Source: a virus
Lineage: Duplodnaviria; Heunggongvirae; Uroviricota; Caudoviricetes
Reading direction: 5' to 3' (one strand)
Length of the DNA stretch: 31,614 nucleotides
Virus record (IMG/VR): IMGVR_UViG_2579778529_000009
Coordinates: 1 to 31,614 of that record
Part shown: positions 12,753 through 31,614 of the stretch, piece after piece
Layout of the letters: each line of letters opens with the position of its first letter
How positions within the stretch are numbered: position 1 is the stretch's first letter
Notes under the pieces: generated by a model
Told to the model about the DNA's origin: nothing
Databases searched by the model: none
What the model saw: the letters and a program-made list of their open reading frames with translations, nothing else
Translations under genes and position numbers: made by a program

Positions 12753-12804
12753 ATTTAAGAAATATATTTTTTAATCTCATTTATTTTTGCAAAAGACTTT
12801 TCAT

Positions 12805-13380
12805 ATGCAGCGTCGAGAAATAAAGAAAATTACTTATTTAATCACTTTGATTTTAACTACTCTTTTGTTTGTTTATTTTTTAAGAACACCCACCACAATC
12901 AATATGAAACAGGCGCATAAAATAAATCAACAACACCAGACAATTTTCCTTATCCGTCACGGTGAACGATGTGACAGAAGCAAAAATGCATGTCTCTCAA
13001 GCAATAAAGGAATTACCGTCAATGGTGCCATTAAAGCTCATGATTATGGAAAAATATTTAGCAATACTTTCCCGTCATTCAGCCTTTACTCCACGGATAC
13101 CATACGGACAATGCAGACAGCCTGTTTTTTCTCTGGAGGAAAAGCAGCCTCCCGGATACCGTTGGCTGCAACATGCGGACTTGATGCTGCAAAGGACATA
13201 CTCAAATTGTCATCCGATAATAAAACTACCGTTATATTCACCCATAATCATTGCCTGACACAAATAGCAAAAAAAATGAAATGGTGGAAGTTAAAGCCAG
13301 AATATCTTGAAACACTGGTTCTTCATATCGAAAACAATCGTCTCATTCTTGACGGAAAACTGACTCACGATAAAGCGTAA
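12805..13380 (+). CDS. Ais/PmrG-like histidine phosphatase (LPS core heptose(II)-phosphate phosphatase homologue) with N-terminal signal/anchor; lysogenic-conversion cargo
   Basis: RHGERCDRS (RHG catalytic motif of histidine phosphatase superfamily), CLSSNKGITV, LYSTDTIRT, VIFTHNHCL, KPEYLETLVLHIE...LDG all parallel recalled E. coli Ais; hydrophobic N-terminus; AT-rich; opposite strand to late genes in the bor-equivalent slot. Confidence 0.75.
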   Translation: MQRREIKKITYLITLILTTLLFVYFLRTPTTINMKQAHKINQQHQTIFLIRHGERCDRSKNACLSSNKGITVNGAIKAHDYGKIFSNTFPSFSLYSTDTIRTMQTACFFSGGKAASRIPLAATCGLDAAKDILKLSSDNKTTVIFTHNHCLTQIAKKMKWWKLKPEYLETLVLHIENNRLILDGKLTHDKA

Positions 13381-14489: not shown

Positions 14490-14506
14490 ACTTTTTTCTC
14501 CTGTAA

Positions 14507-14530
14507 ATAAAAAAGGGCCACCAGCGGCCC
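14507..14530 (-). terminator. Intrinsic terminator immediately upstream of holin RBS (candidate tR-prime-like site)
   Basis: Minus-strand GGGCC-N6-GGCCC hairpin followed by UUUUUU, about 18 nt before the holin Shine-Dalgarno. Confidence 0.45.
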
Positions 14531-14658
14531 GTAAAAAAACAACACCCCGTCAAAGGCACCCGCAGATACCTTTTGTGTGGTGTATTCAGATTTGACATAC
14601 GCTGAGCAGGGCGAAGAAATGAAAAAGGCCCGCAGTAGCGAGCCATGAAGAAACTGAA

Positions 14659-14685
14659 TAAAAAAAACCGCCTGGTACGGCGGTT
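14659..14685 (-). terminator. Intrinsic terminator downstream of tRNA-Gly
   Basis: Minus-strand AACCGCC-GUACCA-GGCGGUU hairpin followed by 7-8 U. Confidence 0.6.
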
Positions 14686-14947
14686 AAGATGAATTTCCAG
14701 GTTTTGCTTAATACGTGATTAATCTCAACGTTTTTTATAGATGTTAACAACATCGGAATGATGCATCACCGGCCCTGTCAGGAAATACAAAATCTCCACC
14801 GATAATGCACCATTACGCTGTTGTAAAAAGACAGCACTGGACTGTAACCGATATCACGTATTACAGAACAGGATGTGGATAAAGATTCAGGAAAACATCC
14901 CACATATAATATGTCAGTGCCCAAAACAACTTGGTATCGTCTACTGC

Positions 14948-15022
<75 letters not shown>

Positions 15023-15439
15023 ATACTATGCGGTCTTCAGTAATCACACGAATTACCGTGAAAGCCAGCACTGGTCTTTCCGACGGTAGTAACACCCCTG
15101 TGAACACCAAAATAACCGTCTTCCAGACCGACGAGAATACTAACGACATTTTTTCAGATATCAAAAATATATTTTGTTTTTAGTTTTTAATATATGTATG
15201 CATCTGTATCAGAAATATACAATTTATATCATTACTAAATTAAAAACATTTCTCTGACGTCTGATTAAAACGTTCCTGTTCCAGTTCCGCGCCAATCACA
15301 CATGGTCATTGCGTTTTACCAGTCCATCGCCACTATCAGGCTGACCAGGGGACGCCCCACCCGAACTGCTGAGAATGCCAGGCACACAAAGAATAATGCC
15401 CGCCAAAGCGTTCCTGCATACAATGACTGCAAAATTCAG

Positions 15440-16183
15440 TTATTCTTGAGCGGAGCCAGAACTCATCTCACTGAATGCAGCCATCCTGTAACCTTCCGGG
15501 GTGACCCCAAAATAACGCCTGAATACACTGATAAAATAAGATGTATTATTATAGCCACACTGCACAGCGATTCTGTTGATGGCACAGCTATATTGATGCA
15601 ACAGCATTGCTGCCATTCTCATTCTCTCCGTAAGCAACAACTCACTGAAACATGTGCCTTCTTCTTTCAGTCTTTTTTTTAACAAACTTTCACTCATACA
15701 TAACCGTGATGACACATCTCGCAGAGTCCAGTTTGCTGCAATGTCTGTATGAAACAACGCACCAAGCCTGCCGCTGATAGTACTGATACACGCGGTCATA
15801 AACGACGAAAACATTTTATCTGATGAAAAAAACGCCAGACACGAAAAGGAAAGCATTTCCGCTAAATTGTCCGTATGAATCTTTTCCTCATAAAGATAAT
15901 CAATCAGGATGCCCATCAATTCTGGCCTGGGAAAACTCATGCAAAGATATCGTGGCATTTTCCGGACTAAAACAACATCCTGTTTTACCCCACTACGCAA
16001 CAGGTAACGGCTAATTGTCGATTCACTGAGACTTATACGCCGAAAACATTCAGAAAAGGGCAATAACGGTCCAGCCCCTCCCCTGACAAGAAGTGCACTA
16101 CCACTTTCCAGAGAGAGTACTTTTCCTTCGAAGAGCACAACAAACGGGGAATGAACAAAAATAACAGAACAGGCCTCATTCAT
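15440..16183 (-). CDS. AraC-family transcriptional regulator (GadX/YdeO/AppY-like), prophage cargo
   Basis: C-terminal AraC-type double HTH (WTLRDVSSRLCMSESLLKKRLKEE...INRIAVQCGYNNTSYFISVFRRYFGVTP); ATG 16183 with AGGGA upstream (track ORF extends to 16291); AT-rich. Confidence 0.8.
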   Translation of the reverse strand: MNEACSVIFVHSPFVVLFEGKVLSLESGSALLVRGGAGPLLPFSECFRRISLSESTISRYLLRSGVKQDVVLVRKMPRYLCMSFPRPELMGILIDYLYEEKIHTDNLAEMLSFSCLAFFSSDKMFSSFMTACISTISGRLGALFHTDIAANWTLRDVSSRLCMSESLLKKRLKEEGTCFSELLLTERMRMAAMLLHQYSCAINRIAVQCGYNNTSYFISVFRRYFGVTPEGYRMAAFSEMSSGSAQE

Positions 16184-16460
16184 ATCAATATCCCTGACAT
16201 TACTGGTCGCAAGATAAGTATATATCACTTTACAAAAATGCAAGCCGTGAGCCCCGAATTCACGACCACCAGCGTGTTTACTGTACTGCACCAGGTTTAC
16301 AGGTACAAAAAACCGCTCGACGGCGGGTTTAAGCTGTGTGGCGAAGTAACCACTCTTAACAGATTAAGATAAAATTTGCGGACCGCGGTAATTTTTTTTG
16401 CTAAATTAAAGCCATATAAAAAAAGATCCATAAGAAATTATTAGTATACTAAGGTTTAAC

Positions 16461-17402
16461 ATGGCTACTATTGCGCAATCAAAGAAACAAAAAAAACTTA
16501 AAATTGGTTTTTACACCAGCAGTTCTGGGACTATCCGCAGCCATTCAGTTGCTAAGCAAGCAATTGAAAATCTGTATAATACTTGCGTAACCGTTACGAA
16601 TAATCATTTTGATACCATCTATAGAAATAAAAAGTTAAAAATAGCTTTTATAAATAAAGATACAAAAGCTAAATATTTCTTCGGCTACATGTCATGCTCA
16701 CGAGAAGAGTATCTCCTTCCTTATATTGGTGATGAATACTGGAATGAGCACAACATACCACTAGATGATAAAAAATACATAGTCGAAAGAACCTATTTTT
16801 TATATTATTACGATAGTGATATTTTAATATTAACTCAAAATCATCTTGGGCCGAAAGAATCGGATTTAGCTTATCTGCTTTACAGCCAGAGTGGTAATCC
16901 TGGAAATAACTTTTCATTCCAAGCCATCTGGAAAAAAGAGAGCGTCAAAGAGCTACTTGAAACAGGAAGTACTTTGAGAAGTTGTGATATTGTCCTGGCT
17001 GCTCCCAGGAACTTTGATGCAACAAATTACCAGCTAAATAGTTCATTTTCTAAGGAACTGGTAAATATGATGGTAGGGCTGGGTGGAACACGTCTCAAGT
17101 TAAATCTAAGGGGACGTGCATCAGGGAGAGTAAAAGTCAAAGGTTATTTATCAGATCTCGTTAAGGATGGTATTAAAGAACTCCTTGAAAAAATGCCGGG
17201 AATTGTAAAAAAAGCGGCAGTAACACAGCCCAAAAATACCGTTGAACAAAGTCTTCTTGATCAGGTACTCATTTCAGAAAAAAACATATATACCGTTAAT
17301 GGTTATGGCACTGATAGTGATGTTCTGCAAGCCATGATTTCTGCTAAAATTGATAACAATGAATACCTTAAGCAATACGATATCAGCAAAAAGAAGGTAT
17401 AG
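16461..17402 (+). CDS. Hypothetical 313-aa soluble protein; candidate RexA-like sensor component of a two-gene abortive-infection/exclusion module
   Basis: AT-rich; AAGG RBS 6 nt upstream; N-terminal KIGFYTSSSG and internal LGPKESDLAYLL resemble recalled lambda RexA motifs (GFYATYRS, GPTTSDLTDFL); 3-nt gap to downstream membrane gene. Confidence 0.5.
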   Translation: MATIAQSKKQKKLKIGFYTSSSGTIRSHSVAKQAIENLYNTCVTVTNNHFDTIYRNKKLKIAFINKDTKAKYFFGYMSCSREEYLLPYIGDEYWNEHNIPLDDKKYIVERTYFLYYYDSDILILTQNHLGPKESDLAYLLYSQSGNPGNNFSFQAIWKKESVKELLETGSTLRSCDIVLAAPRNFDATNYQLNSSFSKELVNMMVGLGGTRLKLNLRGRASGRVKVKGYLSDLVKDGIKELLEKMPGIVKKAAVTQPKNTVEQSLLDQVLISEKNIYTVNGYGTDSDVLQAMISAKIDNNEYLKQYDISKKKV

Positions 17403-17405
17403 GAT

Positions 17406-17849
17406 ATGTTATTGAAATACTTAAGAAACCTGATTGTAAGTGTTTTTTGCACCTTGTTCCTACTGAGGTATATCCCTCAGATGGGGCATGCTGACATACT
17501 TACAGCCTCCGGGGTTATTTCAACTGTATCCGGTATTTTATTTGGTTTTATTTTAGCCACAATATCAATTTTTAGTGCTGCTAGCGAAAACTCAAATGGA
17601 ATAATAAAAGCATTAAAAAACAACAACATACTTCAATTTATTATTGTAAATCTATTAACCGCAGGTGCATCTTTAATTACGGCATGCGTTATTGCTTTGA
17701 TAGCAATGTTTGCCAATGAAAAGACATTGTTACATGGAGAAAAAATAGAATTTATTTTAATTATCGAATCTTTATCTCTTCTTATCATTTCAGTAATAAC
17801 TTTTGCCTTTACATGGAGAAAAGTAAACTGGATACTCCCCCACATTTAA
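17406..17849 (+). CDS. 147-aa four-helix membrane protein; candidate RexB-like effector
   Basis: Four hydrophobic segments (about 8-20, 33-58, 75-102, 117-137); LFLLRYIPQ resembles recalled lambda RexB LLFRHYIPG; size matches RexB (144 aa); translationally coupled to upstream gene. Confidence 0.5.
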   Translation: MLLKYLRNLIVSVFCTLFLLRYIPQMGHADILTASGVISTVSGILFGFILATISIFSAASENSNGIIKALKNNNILQFIIVNLLTAGASLITACVIALIAMFANEKTLLHGEKIEFILIIESLSLLIISVITFAFTWRKVNWILPHI

Positions 17850-17872
17850 AAAGGGCAGAAATGCCCTTTTTT
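17850..17872. terminator. Bidirectional intrinsic terminator between convergent Rex-like operon and Q
   Basis: AAAGGGCA-GAAA-TGCCCTTT hairpin flanked by A-run on one side and T-run on the other, between stop 17849 (+) and stop 17873 (-). Confidence 0.6.
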
Positions 17873-18235
17873 CTACTCCATTTCAAGTTTAACATCCAGC
17901 ATTGAAAGGCATCCATCAATAAACCCTTCAGCCATCTGTATCTCTATACGTATCAATTTCTCATCTTTTTTGCGAGCTCTTGCAAGCTTTCTTTTCGAGA
18001 TGCCATACAGGTAATGGGCCACAATCAAAGAATGCTCGTACGGTTTTCGCTTTTTAAGAAGAGCAAGACAACCTTCAATAATTAATGCATCACTATCTGA
18101 ACAAGCCTGACGTGTTTTGCTTGTATAGGGAAGAAGCCCTTTAAACCCAGCAGCTATAGGAGAATAGTCTACTCCTGAACTATCACTCGCCGCCCATGCT
18201 CCCCAACGATCCAGAACCATTTGAATATCACGCAT
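17873..18235 (-). CDS. Late-gene antiterminator Q (QuuD-like family)
   Basis: MRDIQMVLDRWGAWAA...IAAGFKGL...IIEGCLALLKK...QMAEGFIDGCLSMLDVKLEME closely parallels recalled E. coli K-12 QuuD; start taken at internal ATG 18235. Confidence 0.85.
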   Translation of the reverse strand: MRDIQMVLDRWGAWAASDSSGVDYSPIAAGFKGLLPYTSKTRQACSDSDALIIEGCLALLKKRKPYEHSLIVAHYLYGISKRKLARARKKDEKLIRIEIQMAEGFIDGCLSMLDVKLEME

Positions 18236-18252
18236 CAACTTTCTCCACAAAA

Positions 18253-27387: not shown

Positions 27388-28007
27388 TGACCACATTTAC
27401 CGATAAAGAACTGATTAAAGAAATCAAAGAACGAATCAGCAGCCTAGAGGTTCGAGACGATATTGAGCGCCGTGCTTATGAAATTGCTCTGGCATCGCTA
27501 GAAGAGGAGCCGGTGGCATGGCTGCATTCAGAAAATGGCTTAGGTATTCCGGCAATAACGAGGAGTAAAAACATTGCTGACAGTTGGTTATCAAAGGGCT
27601 GGTATGTTCAGCCGCTATATATAGCCAAGCCAGTGCCGGTGGTGCCAGATGCTCGTCCGTCTTTAAATAATGGCATAGTCGGTTTTGATGAAGGCTGGAA
27701 CGCCTGCCGCGCCGCCATGCTTCATGGTGCCGAACCTGTAAGCCAGACTTACAAGTTGAACAAGCTGTCGGGCAACTCTCCAGTAACTCCGGATGGTTGG
27801 ATAAGCTGTAGTGAGCGAATGCCGAACGATAAACAGTATGTTTGGTGTTGGGGGAAGCCTTACGGCTGGACTGAGTGCGATACCTTCGAAGGGTATTACG
27901 ATTGGTCGAGAAACAAATGGTGGGCAGTTACTGACGATAGGGAAGAACCGGCATCGAAAGTAACCCACTGGATGCCGCTACCGGAGCCGCCGCAGGAGGT
28001 GAAGTAA
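27387..28007 (+). CDS. DUF551 domain protein
   Basis: C-terminal WISCSERMPNDKQYVWCWG...THWMPLPEPP typical of DUF551 early-region proteins; ATGA coupling both sides. Confidence 0.6.
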   Translation: MTTFTDKELIKEIKERISSLEVRDDIERRAYEIALASLEEEPVAWLHSENGLGIPAITRSKNIADSWLSKGWYVQPLYIAKPVPVVPDARPSLNNGIVGFDEGWNACRAAMLHGAEPVSQTYKLNKLSGNSPVTPDGWISCSERMPNDKQYVWCWGKPYGWTECDTFEGYYDWSRNKWWAVTDDREEPASKVTHWMPLPEPPQEVK

Positions 28008-28201
28008 TGAACAACTTAATGACAACTAAACAAGTCGCCGACTTCTGTGGCGTTTCAGTATCGACTGTTCTTCGCTGGAACAGCGTAAACAGGAGAACTG
28101 GCCAGAAATACAGGCCTGACTTTCCAGATCCTGATATTAAATCCTGCCCAAATAAATGGGCATCACGCAAGATATACAGATTTGCTGGAGTTATTGAGTA
28201 A
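28007..28201 (+). CDS. AlpA/Xis-like small DNA-binding protein (putative excisionase/regulator)
   Basis: 64 aa; MTTKQVADFCGVSVSTVLRW HTH typical of AlpA/phage excisionase family; in integrase-proximal region. Confidence 0.6.
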   Translation: MNNLMTTKQVADFCGVSVSTVLRWNSVNRRTGQKYRPDFPDPDIKSCPNKWASRKIYRFAGVIE

Positions 28202-28414
28202 CGTGTATTATCTCAGATGGGAGCTGACATATCTATGGCACAGACCAAACTAATCTGACAGTCAAGTCTGTGCCAAGAGCAAACGTTGCTAATTTAATGT
28301 TAAGTTGTTTCTCTTGAAGACGATCACGCTATGATACAACCTATAAAATTATCGATATCTGAGAGAACCAGTAAAAAGTTTAAGTCAAGGGTTCTATAAG
28401 TGTGTTAATTTATT

Positions 28415-28445
28415 GGGAAGCAATAAGCTTCCCTTCTCTTTATTT
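28415..28445 (+). terminator. Intrinsic terminator at end of early-left operon, overlapping 3-prime end of convergent gene
   Basis: GGGAAGC-AATAA-GCTTCCC hairpin followed by TTCTCTTTATTT. Confidence 0.5.
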
Positions 28446-30140
28446 AGGTACGCTATCAACACTTTTGAGAATCGTTGATGTTAAAGGCTGCGACTTTAGT
28501 AAGTCTCGAGAAATATCCGGATCTGGTATAGCTATTTTTACTAAACTCTCAAGTTTTTCAAACCACTCCCCATCATTCATTGAGAATAAGTTATGAAGAG
28601 CTTCATTTTTATTTTTGAACCCCCAAGCCTTATAATTATTACCACAGTATTTTGACGCAGCAGTTAGAATATGCCAGCGTAATTTTGAATACTTCCCATC
28701 AAACCTCTTATTTGAGATAAGAGCCTTTAGCCTATACAAGCAATAGCAAGATATATAATAATCATCCTCGAGGGCATCGGAAGAGAAAACCTCATTAAGT
28801 AAGTCACCAGTTAACCTATTTGGATAACGACTGGAATAATCTGGTCTCATCATAACAATAGCAGCATATGCTCGCGCAACTTCTCTGATATCAAATATGC
28901 GTACTGGAGCTATACTTTCTGAACTATACTGCCCCTTTCTTCTCTCAAAATAAATTTTATTTCCTTCAATAGCACCTTTAGCATTAAAATAATGTTCTAA
29001 TTCCCTTAATTTTTTTAGCGTTGAAATGAACTGTGCATCTTCAACTTTAGATTGTCTATTCGTAGCTCGTACAATGTCATCAAGGATCGCTGGCTCATCG
29101 GTTTCAATTAATTTAATCATTAAACTAACTGATTCATCTACTTGAATGTCTTTTGATATAAGAACATTAGACGTTTGACATCCATTAACAATTTGAAAAT
29201 CTCGTATAAAAATTTCTTGCCCTGCAGGCCTCACGCTTGATGCAACTATTGTCACTCCATTATTCATTAAACCAAATCTTGCTTTTTTTCCATCAGTATC
29301 TAGTGTTCCTGCAATTTCTGAATTTACGTCACCATCAATTCCCAGAAAATCTCTAACATTTTCTTCGAATAATTTTTTTCGAGGGTTTCCATTTTTGTCT
29401 TTAAGTATAGAATCAATAAAACTACGAGCTTTGACTGTAGCTACATAGGCATTATTAATATTAGGGGCCGCTGGGAATGGAGCATAGCCTATTGTAGGAA
29501 GTTTAGCTTCTATTGGACCTTCCGCAGCAAGCCAAAGCTCATGAATCATGTCTTTGTGAGCCATAATGAAGGATGTTTCATGTGAAAACCCGAGTGACTT
29601 TAAGCTTTTTTCACCCGATGCAAATGCAGCTTTTATTTCTCTGGCCTCTGTATTTTGTGCAGCACTAAAAAAATATGCGTATAAGTCTGGAAGGCCATTT
29701 TTGACTCTGCCGATATTAGCAAATATCAAGTTGAACATTTTTTTAAAGTCCGCTAGATATTCACTGTGGGGTTGTTGTGGCGCTGGTGAAAGATAATCTC
29801 TTATTGACGCAATGTAAGAGTCTATTTCCTGTTTGCTCCACTTCTCCGATGACTTAGCTTGCGTGAATACTAATGAAACTTGAAACTCGCGACGTGAGTT
29901 TTGGAAAATCTCCTGAAGTTCTTCAGTTGAAAAAATGGCTCTGTCGTCTAAAAATAAAAATGCTCCATCAATACCAGGGTCCGGGCCTTCATACACAAGA
30001 TCACTGACCTCAACTTTGTCGCCTGAGTATTTTGAAAAAGCACAATAGTTCACAAACGCCTCAAAATTTTTGGTCTCCTCATAGGGCGCAGCGAATGCTT
30101 TGCAAAAGGCATCGAAATAAGATTTCGTGACTAAATGCAT
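28440..30140 (-). CDS. Large AT-rich orphan protein (about 566 aa); candidate abortive-infection/defence protein (AIPR-like?)
   Basis: ATG 30140 preceded by AAAGGAG; visibly lower GC than flanks; between xis-like gene and integrase, convergent with early-left operon; possible N-terminal nuclease-like acidic motif (GIDGAFLFLDD...FQVSLVFTQAK), unverified. Confidence 0.5.
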   Translation of the reverse strand: MHLVTKSYFDAFCKAFAAPYEETKNFEAFVNYCAFSKYSGDKVEVSDLVYEGPDPGIDGAFLFLDDRAIFSTEELQEIFQNSRREFQVSLVFTQAKSSEKWSKQEIDSYIASIRDYLSPAPQQPHSEYLADFKKMFNLIFANIGRVKNGLPDLYAYFFSAAQNTEAREIKAAFASGEKSLKSLGFSHETSFIMAHKDMIHELWLAAEGPIEAKLPTIGYAPFPAAPNINNAYVATVKARSFIDSILKDKNGNPRKKLFEENVRDFLGIDGDVNSEIAGTLDTDGKKARFGLMNNGVTIVASSVRPAGQEIFIRDFQIVNGCQTSNVLISKDIQVDESVSLMIKLIETDEPAILDDIVRATNRQSKVEDAQFISTLKKLRELEHYFNAKGAIEGNKIYFERRKGQYSSESIAPVRIFDIREVARAYAAIVMMRPDYSSRYPNRLTGDLLNEVFSSDALEDDYYISCYCLYRLKALISNKRFDGKYSKLRWHILTAASKYCGNNYKAWGFKNKNEALHNLFSMNDGEWFEKLESLVKIAIPDPDISRDLLKSQPLTSTILKSVDSVPK

Positions 30141-30390
30141 AAAAACTCCTTTCTGAAATAAGATAAGTTTATTAGAAACAACAAGATAAAGATAATAGTA
30201 ATACAAGTTAAAGACATACTGCATCACATAAGTTGGTCAAGATCAATAAATCAATAAGGATCCCCTATGTTTTATGTATTGTTGATAATTCTATCACCTC
30301 TTACTTCTGGTCTAAGCGTAACCTACTCAAGAATGCCATTGAAAATGTCCACTGTTCGCTCAAAACAGACTGTCAGGGCTACGCAAGCTG

Positions 30391-31614
30391 TCAGGTAGAT
30401 TCTGGGCCAGTACAAGTAACGATCGATTCAACTCTCTCCCACCATGCCTGATATGCTTTACGCTGTTCTTCTAGATAATCGCTCTTGTCATAAACCTGCC
30501 AAACCCCTGGCAGTTTATGGCCGAGCATTATTTCTGCAATATGAGGAGCAGTAAGATCAGAAAAGTTTGTTCGTGCTGTTCGCCTCAAATCATGAAGAGA
30601 CCAATGAGGGAATTGATGCCCCAAACGCCTCCATGCGTACTGCATTAAATTGTAAGGCAGCGACTGCAATGATGTTCGACCAACGGGTTCCCTGCTTCCT
30701 TCCTTAGTAAAAAGCATATCGGAACCATTGTTCATAGAGATAGCGTTCTTTATAAGCTCCTCCACCGGTTCAATAATGGGCCTCTTTAGCGGTTCGCCTG
30801 TTATCTCTCCAGTCTTATGTCGTTCTGGTGGTACAGTCCATACCTTATTAATGAAATCAAAATCGCCCACCCTGGCAGTAATTAGCTCTGAACTACGGCA
30901 GCCAAAATGCAGCAATAGCTTAATGAAGGCCCGGTATTTAGGAACCATTCGAGAACCATCGATCGCAGAATAAAGGATTTTAATTTCATCATGTGTCAGA
31001 AACCGTTTCTTCTGACCTTTACGGATATCCATATCTTTACCCGTGATATCCGACAGCGGGCGAGTTTCAATGAGCTTTCTCTTATACGCCCAGACATGGG
31101 CCTGCTTTGCGTTAATTAGCAATCGGTCTGCTATTGCTGGAGTCTTAGTGCTAAGAGGCTCCAGGACTTCTAACCAATCATGCAATGTAGCTGCATCGTG
31201 AGGGATATTCCCGATTTTAGAGAACAGGTGCAGCTCAAACGAGCGGAGTATCTGTTCAGAACCTTTTTTATTTTTTACACAATATGCTTCATACCAGGCA
31301 CGGATCACAGACTCTACCGTCATGGCTTCAGTAGCTTTTCGTTTTTCAGCCTGCTTGACCAATCGTGGATTACGGTTTGACTCAAGTTCACCACGGAGAC
31401 GGATAACTTCTTCTCTGGCCTCTTTTAATCCAGTTGCCGGGTAAGTTCCGATATCAAGACGCTCACCTTTCCCTGCCCATTGATAACGATATTGGAACAC
31501 TACGCGACCTTTCGGTGATACTCTGACAGACAGACCATCACGATCGGATTTAACCAAAACCTTATCACGTTCCTTTCCAACGACTGAACGCAACCACGCA
31601 TCAGACAACGCCAT
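30391..31614 (-). CDS. int: Tyrosine integrase, P4/CP4-57 (IntA-like) family
   Basis: 407 aa; N-terminal arm-binding DUF4102-like region (GLSVRVSPKGRVVFQYRYQWAGK); catalytic HDLRRT and C-terminal Tyr (VYDKSDYLEEQR); start codon is the last 3 nt of the window. Confidence 0.9.
   Translation of the reverse strand: MALSDAWLRSVVGKERDKVLVKSDRDGLSVRVSPKGRVVFQYRYQWAGKGERLDIGTYPATGLKEAREEVIRLRGELESNRNPRLVKQAEKRKATEAMTVESVIRAWYEAYCVKNKKGSEQILRSFELHLFSKIGNIPHDAATLHDWLEVLEPLSTKTPAIADRLLINAKQAHVWAYKRKLIETRPLSDITGKDMDIRKGQKKRFLTHDEIKILYSAIDGSRMVPKYRAFIKLLLHFGCRSSELITARVGDFDFINKVWTVPPERHKTGEITGEPLKRPIIEPVEELIKNAISMNNGSDMLFTKEGSREPVGRTSLQSLPYNLMQYAWRRLGHQFPHWSLHDLRRTARTNFSDLTAPHIAEIMLGHKLPGVWQVYDKSDYLEEQRKAYQAWWERVESIVTCTGPEST

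Follow-up and report, generated by a model that had tools for sequence, protein, structure and literature searches.

The question raised by IMG/VR virus record IMGVR_UViG_2579778529_000009 is what is encoded by a long AT-rich gene that lies between its excisionase and integrase genes. The whole stretch that was analysed, 31,614 nucleotides (nt), is called the window below. The initial annotation treated the gene as an orphan, and suggested a single-gene abortive-infection protein, possibly AIPR-like. By its profile matches, the product of 566 amino acids (aa) is a member of the AbiU/AIPR anti-phage defence family, already catalogued by PGAP, PADLOC and PHROGs. Residues 258-518 align with positions 1-292 of the 308-position Pfam model AIPR (PF10592) at 148.4 bits (cut-off 25, E 5e-43), and the same model matches 72 of 72 aligned homologues as well. 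The match to the PADLOC model AbiU (PDLC02357; 371 bits, E 2.6e-111) is full-length, with residues 2-562 aligned to model positions 3-535 of 537. Among phage orthologous groups the protein matches phrog_1841 (E 2e-70), 'Abi alpha-like abortive infection mechanism', category moron. Finally, among clusters built at 90% identity, the one named 'AIPR family protein' (E. coli) has a 566-aa representative that is identical (100%) to the protein, and RefSeq gives the identical protein the same name. The searches with hidden Markov models and PADLOC proposed by the initial annotation thus both gave matches. With these matches and thousands of homologues the gene is no orphan, whereas its description as a single AIPR-like abortive-infection gene is borne out computationally, and no conserved partner was found. 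Within the family, sequence comparison places the protein in a divergent proteobacterial branch of AbiU1 without an AbiU2 partner.

The gene is a single long open reading frame (ORF) on the minus strand ending at 28440. Starting from the ATG at 30140, the coding sequence (28440..30140) encodes 566 aa. This is the start used by PGAP in RefSeq (WP_061362269.1; 99.8% DNA identity at the locus), and the N-terminal M1-H2 is invariant at this position in 31 of 31 aligned homologues. A candidate Shine-Dalgarno box AGGAG is read at 30146..30150 on the minus strand, 5 nt upstream of the ATG, which agrees with the strong ribosome-binding site reported initially. A mechanical ORF call from the GTG at 30227 gives a form of 595 aa. 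This form was rejected, as the extension is missing from the PGAP call and the homologues all begin with MH. The GC content of the gene is 36.9% (27.9% at third codon positions), against 45.3% in the integrase gene int, 49.8% in the DUF551 gene of the plus-strand operon described below and 49% in the window as a whole, so that the large low-GC ORF is as originally described. The gene falls within the lowest 4.7% of 1701-nt segments of the stretch. Low GC is not unique to it, as an equally low content is found at 12.5-13.5 kb and 14.5-18 kb.

The predicted architecture consists of an N-terminal Mrr-type nuclease fold, an AIPR core in the middle that may be ParB/sulfiredoxin-like, and a helical domain at the C-terminus. 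The conservation counts and the input of AlphaFold2 come from 72 diverse homologues, and the resulting model has a predicted local distance difference test score (pLDDT) of 90.6 and a predicted template modelling score (pTM) of 0.79. The N-terminal domain (residues 1-250; 29391..30140, minus strand) is predicted to have a PD-(D/E)xK nuclease fold of the Mrr/FokI/MspJI type. It contains the conserved positions E27 (71/72), D58 (72/72), Q94 (71/72) and K96 (63/72). D58 of the string DPGIDG (codon 29967..29969, minus strand) is the predicted metal-binding aspartate, and Q94-A95-K96 (29853..29861, minus strand) is the predicted (Q/E)xK half-motif. Alignment with the Mrr family profile by hhalign (E 9.4e-4) sets DPGIDG on GDGGIDG of Mrr, with D58 on D203, and TQAK on VQAK, with Q94 and K96 on Q219 and K221. 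Relative to Mrr, about 20 residues (helix 72-81) are inserted between the strands carrying D and QxK. The D…(Q/E)xK pattern is the metal-binding catalytic motif of the Mrr superfamily (PMC2938202, PMC5435990): the activity of MspJI is abolished by the substitutions D334A and Q355A (PMC2938202), and D203A is a catalytic mutant of Mrr (PMC5435990). The assignment of the N-terminal domain as a nuclease is therefore well supported at the level of predicted fold and motif, but not at the level of profile membership. The possible N-terminal nuclease-like acidic motif suggested in the first reading of the sequence is supported, by computation, by the conserved E27, D58 and Q94-x-K96, of which D58, Q94 and K96 align to Mrr.

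The AIPR core (residues 258-518; 28587..29369, minus strand) may form a ParB/sulfiredoxin-like fold followed by helices. Its motifs are NNGxT, NGCQT, TNxQ and ERR. The positions N261, R263, N273, N293-N294-G295, T297, N319-G320, Q322, N361, Q363 and E399-R400 are invariant, and C321 (71/72), T323 (70/72), T360 (68/72), R401 (71/72) and Q404 (67/72) are nearly so. The signature N319-G320-C321-Q322-T323 (codons 29172..29186, minus strand) is placed by the model at a strand-to-helix junction, between strand 309-319 and helix 321-329. This signature recalls the catalytic motif of sulfiredoxin, GGCHR. The C-terminal region of about 110 residues is helical in the model. One possibility, which we put forward only tentatively and consider doubtful, is that the core is a sulfiredoxin/ParB-type nucleotide-dependent switch that senses a phage nucleotide, DNA feature or protein and gates the N-terminal Mrr-type nuclease. 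If this were true, AbiU proteins would form a distinct, mechanistically undescribed class of single-chain restriction or abortive-infection enzymes gated by nucleoside triphosphates (NTPs), and the highly conserved proteobacterial clade, with a member carried by an E. coli prophage, would offer a tractable model for it.

Homologues of the protein are widespread. Of 5,426 complete E. coli genomes, 63 contain the DNA at an identity of 95% or more (99% or more in 59 records). A word-index search retrieved 2,092 homologues, and an exhaustive search of cluster representatives gave 3,553 clusters (50% identity) at E<=1e-3, of which 476 reach E<=1e-30. Proteins with 70-76% identity are found in Burkholderia, Pseudomonas, Kosakonia, Cupriavidus, Paracoccus, Methylobacterium and Aeromonas. 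In every locus examined the homologue is AT-rich relative to its flanks. The broad taxonomic spread together with the low GC content compared with the flanks in all these loci indicates, at the sequence level, frequent horizontal transfer of the gene. No neighbour is conserved in three other contexts, the Pseudomonas, Kosakonia and Aeromonas loci: the Kosakonia homologue adjoins small helix-turn-helix/TacA-like genes, and the Aeromonas homologue adjoins a restriction-modification (R-M) system of the XhoI type, a relaxase and an integrase-like gene. ORF calls and PGAP give no second gene in the 2.1-kb cassette that carries the gene in the window. By this genomic comparison it appears to be a single-gene system without an obligatory partner. 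A copy with 99.5% identity was observed on a 373-kb E. coli plasmid (NZ_CP135245.1 14311-16008), thus the cassette is not confined to the prophage at yjjG described below. Among INPHARED phages, a near-identity search gave no match; at the protein level there were only distant matches, the best of them in Fels-2.

The window is a lambdoid prophage with genes for terminase, portal, head protease/capsid protein, tape measure, antiterminator Q, a LexA-like repressor and yfd genes of the CPS-53 type. The left neighbour of the AbiU/AIPR gene is the gene of a 64-aa excisionase (28007..28201, plus strand; phrog_1553 at E 7.7e-36, weak Xis/HTH_17 matches), and the right neighbour is that of a P4-type tyrosine integrase (30391..31614, minus strand; called as an ORF, 'tyrosine-type recombinase/integrase' in PGAP, NCBIfam integrase domain at E 1.5e-18). 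The AbiU/AIPR gene lies 250 nt downstream of int, both on the minus strand, and is convergent with a plus-strand operon of a yfdR-like gene, the DUF551 gene and the excisionase gene xis. Both the excisionase-like and integrase neighbours and the convergence with the early-left operon were recognised in the initial annotation.

E. coli strain 26561 has a near-identical segment with the AIPR and int genes, which belongs to a prophage flanked by prfC and yjjG. The same flanks of the xis-int slot are shared by five sister prophages at yjjG, and each of the five holds a different cargo there. The breakpoints of blastn alignments with these prophages are at 28279-28293 and 30377-30409 and delimit a variable cargo cassette of about 2.1 kb (28294..30376), the GC content being 36.6% over 28202-30390. 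Since sister prophages with the same flanks carry different cargos, the xis-int slot of lambdoid prophages integrated at yjjG is a variable cassette-exchange locus, and the proposal that the gene is integrase-proximal cargo stands. The alternative cargos encode hypothetical proteins of 239 aa (L002:2144-2863, minus strand), 342 aa (L003:2672-3700, minus strand), 271 aa (L004:1829-2644, minus strand), 436 and 81 aa (L005:969-2517, plus strand) and 377 aa (L006:922-2055, minus strand). The 271-aa protein has a chance-level match to REase_II (E 1e-3). All these cargos are candidate uncharacterised defence or moron genes.

Taken together, the gene most probably encodes a single-gene anti-phage protein of the AbiU1/AIPR family that would act as a licensed Mrr-type nuclease, and is a horizontally acquired moron in the xis-int slot of a lambdoid, CPS-53-like E. 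coli prophage by yjjG. In the lysogen the protein would be made at a low level and would be inactive. Upon infection by another phage, the ParB/sulfiredoxin-like core and the helical tail would sense a cue, perhaps a phage protein, a nucleotide or some feature of a nucleic acid. The cue would license the Mrr-type nuclease to cut DNA. The cutting would block or delay phage gene expression, as in the lactococcal AbiU phenotype, and lower the phage yield, possibly at the cost of the infected cell. The prophage would gain by excluding competitors.

Several results weigh against this explanation. The nuclease assignment has a weak point in the structural comparison: the AlphaFold2 model is confident, but Foldseek, which had been suggested together with structure prediction, gave nothing significant with either model. 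The Pfam scan of the 72 family members, likewise, gave no nuclease model over the N-terminal domain in any of them, AIPR being the only model common at E<=1, so that the profile search for PD-(D/E)xK domains envisaged at the outset had a negative outcome. The probability given by hhalign for the Mrr alignment is only 22%, and 9 of the 72 homologues have E or T in place of K96. The similarity to the lactococcal prototype is low: BLASTP against a 589-aa protein of Lactococcus cremoris aligns residues 48-476 at 24% identity (E 9e-28). The prototype itself has a weak phenotype, with the efficiency of plating decreased 10- to 100-fold (PMC13064643). The promoter scan found no sigma-70-like minus-strand site between int and the AbiU/AIPR gene, and thus expression of the protein in the lysogen is assumed. 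Lastly, Pfam and PADLOC searches recognised no defence gene among the five alternative cargos. For this reason we only infer, by analogy with the P2 and P4 hotspots, that the xis-int slot may be a 'defence hotspot'.

A different mode of action of the same family is conceivable, namely type IV-like, feature-dependent restriction giving direct immunity. The core would then be an NTP-dependent DNA sensor, as in GmrSD/BrxU, cleavage by the Mrr-type nuclease would be restricted to foreign DNA, such as hypermodified DNA, and the cell would survive. The alignment of the motif with Mrr itself fits this mode, and so do the frequent linkage of AIPR genes to R-M operons (PMC2292703, PMC3506569) and the position of the Aeromonas homologue beside such a system. 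However, no modified-base reader (SRA, winged helix, etc.) is recognisable in the Pfam scans, and the prototype is classed as abortive infection and acts on transcription of unmodified lactococcal phages (PMC13064643); we thus consider direct restriction unlikely. The location of the gene could also be read in another way. The gene immediately follows int on the same strand, neither a promoter nor a terminator is predicted in between, and the other cargos of the slot are not recognisable as defence genes. This could fit a selfish or prophage-maintenance nuclease that shares domains with AbiU and serves addiction, stabilisation or DNA transactions in the int/xis region. Such a role outside defence is very improbable. 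Integration and excision do not require the gene, since it is missing from sister prophages whose int and xis are the same; close homologues are found in settings as different as a mobilisable element, a chromosomal islet and the P2 hotspot; and the protein matches, over its full length, a family in which a defence role has been validated by experiment for two members (PMC13064643; bioRxiv 10.1101/2024.06.14.598830).

Hardly any weight can be given to a HEPN RNase mechanism. It was considered because a HEPN domain has been ascribed to AIPR proteins (PMC3506569), because phage transcripts are affected in the lactococcal phenotype, and because the C-terminal part is all-helical. On the other hand, the whole 566-residue sequence lacks an Rx4-6H motif, and the N-terminal domain is predicted to be alpha/beta with D…QxK. 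A later paper of the same group describes AbiU1/AIPR as a combination of ParB-like and other nuclease domains, with HEPN being a feature of AbiU2 (PMC3632139). Neither the ORF calls nor the PGAP annotation include an AbiU2-like gene here. The HEPN domain was therefore rejected for the 566-aa protein, to which the statement in PMC3506569 does not apply.

The gain in annotation is small, as PGAP, PADLOC and PHROGs already name the gene. On the other hand, AbiU has been known since 2001 with neither an established biochemical mechanism nor a solved structure; there is no PDB match by Foldseek, and a search of PDB sequences with the family profile gave nothing at E<=1. The E. coli copy, with 70-76% identity to genes of Pseudomonas and Burkholderia among others, is a genetically convenient AbiU model, and D58, Q94, K96, C321, E399 and R400 are offered as residues for mutation. 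The swap-in slot between xis and int in lambdoid prophages integrated at yjjG extends the P2/P4 hotspot concept. New biology is more likely to come from its five alternative cargos, which have no Pfam or PADLOC match, than from the AbiU gene itself.

The intergenic regions contain candidate RNA structures. A GC-rich hairpin with a 7-bp stem is situated at 28415..28433, 6 nt past the stop codon of the AbiU/AIPR gene, and was found by the terminator scan and by folding of both strands. It folds at -12.4 kcal/mol on the plus strand (z -2.6) and at -13.3 kcal/mol on the minus strand (z -4.0). On the plus strand the hairpin has the U-rich tail UUCUCUUUAUUU and is called by the scan as a plus-strand terminator. 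On the minus strand the stem is followed by AAUAAAUUAA, and thus it is not a canonical intrinsic terminator for the AbiU/AIPR gene. As the U-tract is present only on the plus strand, the most plausible role of the hairpin is that of a terminator or insulator which keeps transcription of the xis operon from running on into the antisense strand of the gene. The hairpin reported initially as an intrinsic terminator at the end of this gene is therefore real, but its U-tract belongs to the opposite strand.

A strong stem-loop was observed on the plus strand at 28236-28275, 35 nt after the xis stop codon (GGCACAGAC…GUCUGUGCC; -20.2 kcal/mol, z -4.9). It is located in the conserved flank, and the stem is retained in 4 of 5 sister prophages while the loops differ. 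It may be a terminator or a processing site of the xis operon. The Rfam search of 27900-30500 returned only sroE at the chance level (E 0.67). The cassette is bracketed by a perfect 9-nt inverted pair, CTGACAGTC at 28255-28263 and GACTGTCAG at 30368-30376, within a 25-nt repeat that is 72% complementary. The left copy is in the conserved flank and the right copy just precedes the point where homology resumes. A near-identical right-end motif, AAAACAGACTATCAG, is present in L004, the sister prophage with the 271-aa cargo. The pair could be due to chance or be a recombination scar; the repeat search around the cassette gave only short repeats, which are probably chance occurrences.

Two further regions of low GC content were noticed elsewhere in the window. 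An AT-rich island at 14500-18000 (33-44% GC) lies just downstream of the antiterminator Q gene (17873-18250, minus strand). It contains a plus-strand pair of genes at 16461-17402 (313 aa, DUF6731, phrog_7651) and 17406-17849 (147 aa, phrog_8552), and a gene of an AraC-family regulator at 15440-16291 (minus strand). PADLOC gave no match for the proteins of this island, which is a possible second moron locus. The other region, with 36-41% GC, contains a plus-strand gene at 12787-13380 (197 aa) whose product has a marginal match to His_Phos_1 (E 8e-5, 22.8 bits at a cut-off of 21.7).

The closest functional comparison is with AbiU of lactococci. AbiUi alone gives resistance and delays phage transcription (Dai 2001, as summarised in PMC13064643). 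A preprint of 2024 likewise validated an AbiU of Vibrio and identified 'Surt', an anti-AbiU protein of a phage (bioRxiv 10.1101/2024.06.14.598830). P2 and P4 elements both carry AbiU in their defence hotspots (PMC13586616), and for the P4 hotspot an AIPR system ranks within the top 30 (PMC9122126). On a Lactococcus cremoris plasmid, the gene of the 589-aa AIPR protein is followed by a 341-aa gene. These sizes presumably are those of AbiU1 and AbiU2. The AbiU model scores 590 bits with the lactococcal 589-aa protein, 375 bits with the Fels-2 homologue and 371 bits with the protein studied here. The lactococcal alignment spans both the D…QxK motif ('DGGCDS…IIIQSKNS') and the NNGxT and NGxQTS motifs. 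The two proteins agree in the full-length profile match, the length class (566 and 589 aa) and the order of a D…QxK domain followed by the AIPR core, and both are AT-rich single genes on mobile elements. They differ in that their sequences are only 24% identical, no AbiU2 (HEPN) gene is present downstream here, and the element is a proteobacterial prophage rather than a plasmid of Firmicutes.

A second relative is STM2723.1 of Fels-2 (NC_010463.1 22639-24336; L007:4001-5698). It is annotated as 'hypothetical protein' and is a full-length AbiU/AIPR homologue (PADLOC AbiU, E 2.7e-112), with 30% identity to the 566-aa protein from end to end (E 7e-100). Its gene is located between the replication genes (gpA/dinI region) and the portal gene Q. 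The AbiU score of STM2723.1 is almost equal to that of our protein, and like AbiU of the P2 and P4 hotspots (PMC13586616) both are prophage cargo in a variable locus. However, Fels-2 is P2-like whereas the prophage considered here is lambdoid with a P4-type integrase, the slot is between xis and int rather than at the portal gene Q, and the proteins belong to different clades.

With Mrr, MspJI, AspBHI and FokI the protein shares the D…(Q/E)xK motif, and the strings GIDG and QAK are literally the same in Mrr. In contrast to Mrr and MspJI, where the nuclease is C-terminal, the predicted nuclease is N-terminal here, and it further differs from Mrr-like nucleases by the extra 20 residues or so between D and QxK, the lack of a match to Pfam Mrr_cat and the lack of a known DNA-reader domain. 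The AIPR core is common to this protein and MzaE of the five-gene Mza system. The similarity lies in this core (NCBIfam NF041935 at E 9e-10, residues 255-406; PADLOC MzaE at E 6e-9). Membership in Mza was rejected, as the score is 37.7 bits against a cut-off of 1050, no MzaA-D genes are nearby, and the neighbours are xis and int. AIPR is also related to the N-domain of DndB (PMC3632139). Like GmrSD and BrxU, which combine a DUF262 ParB-like NTPase with a nuclease, the protein may be a single-protein defence system in which a ParB/sulfiredoxin-fold domain is fused to a nuclease effector. Unlike GmrSD/BrxU and DndB, it has NGCQT instead of DGQQR or DGQHR, a predicted Mrr-type effector instead of DUF1524, and the reverse order of domains.

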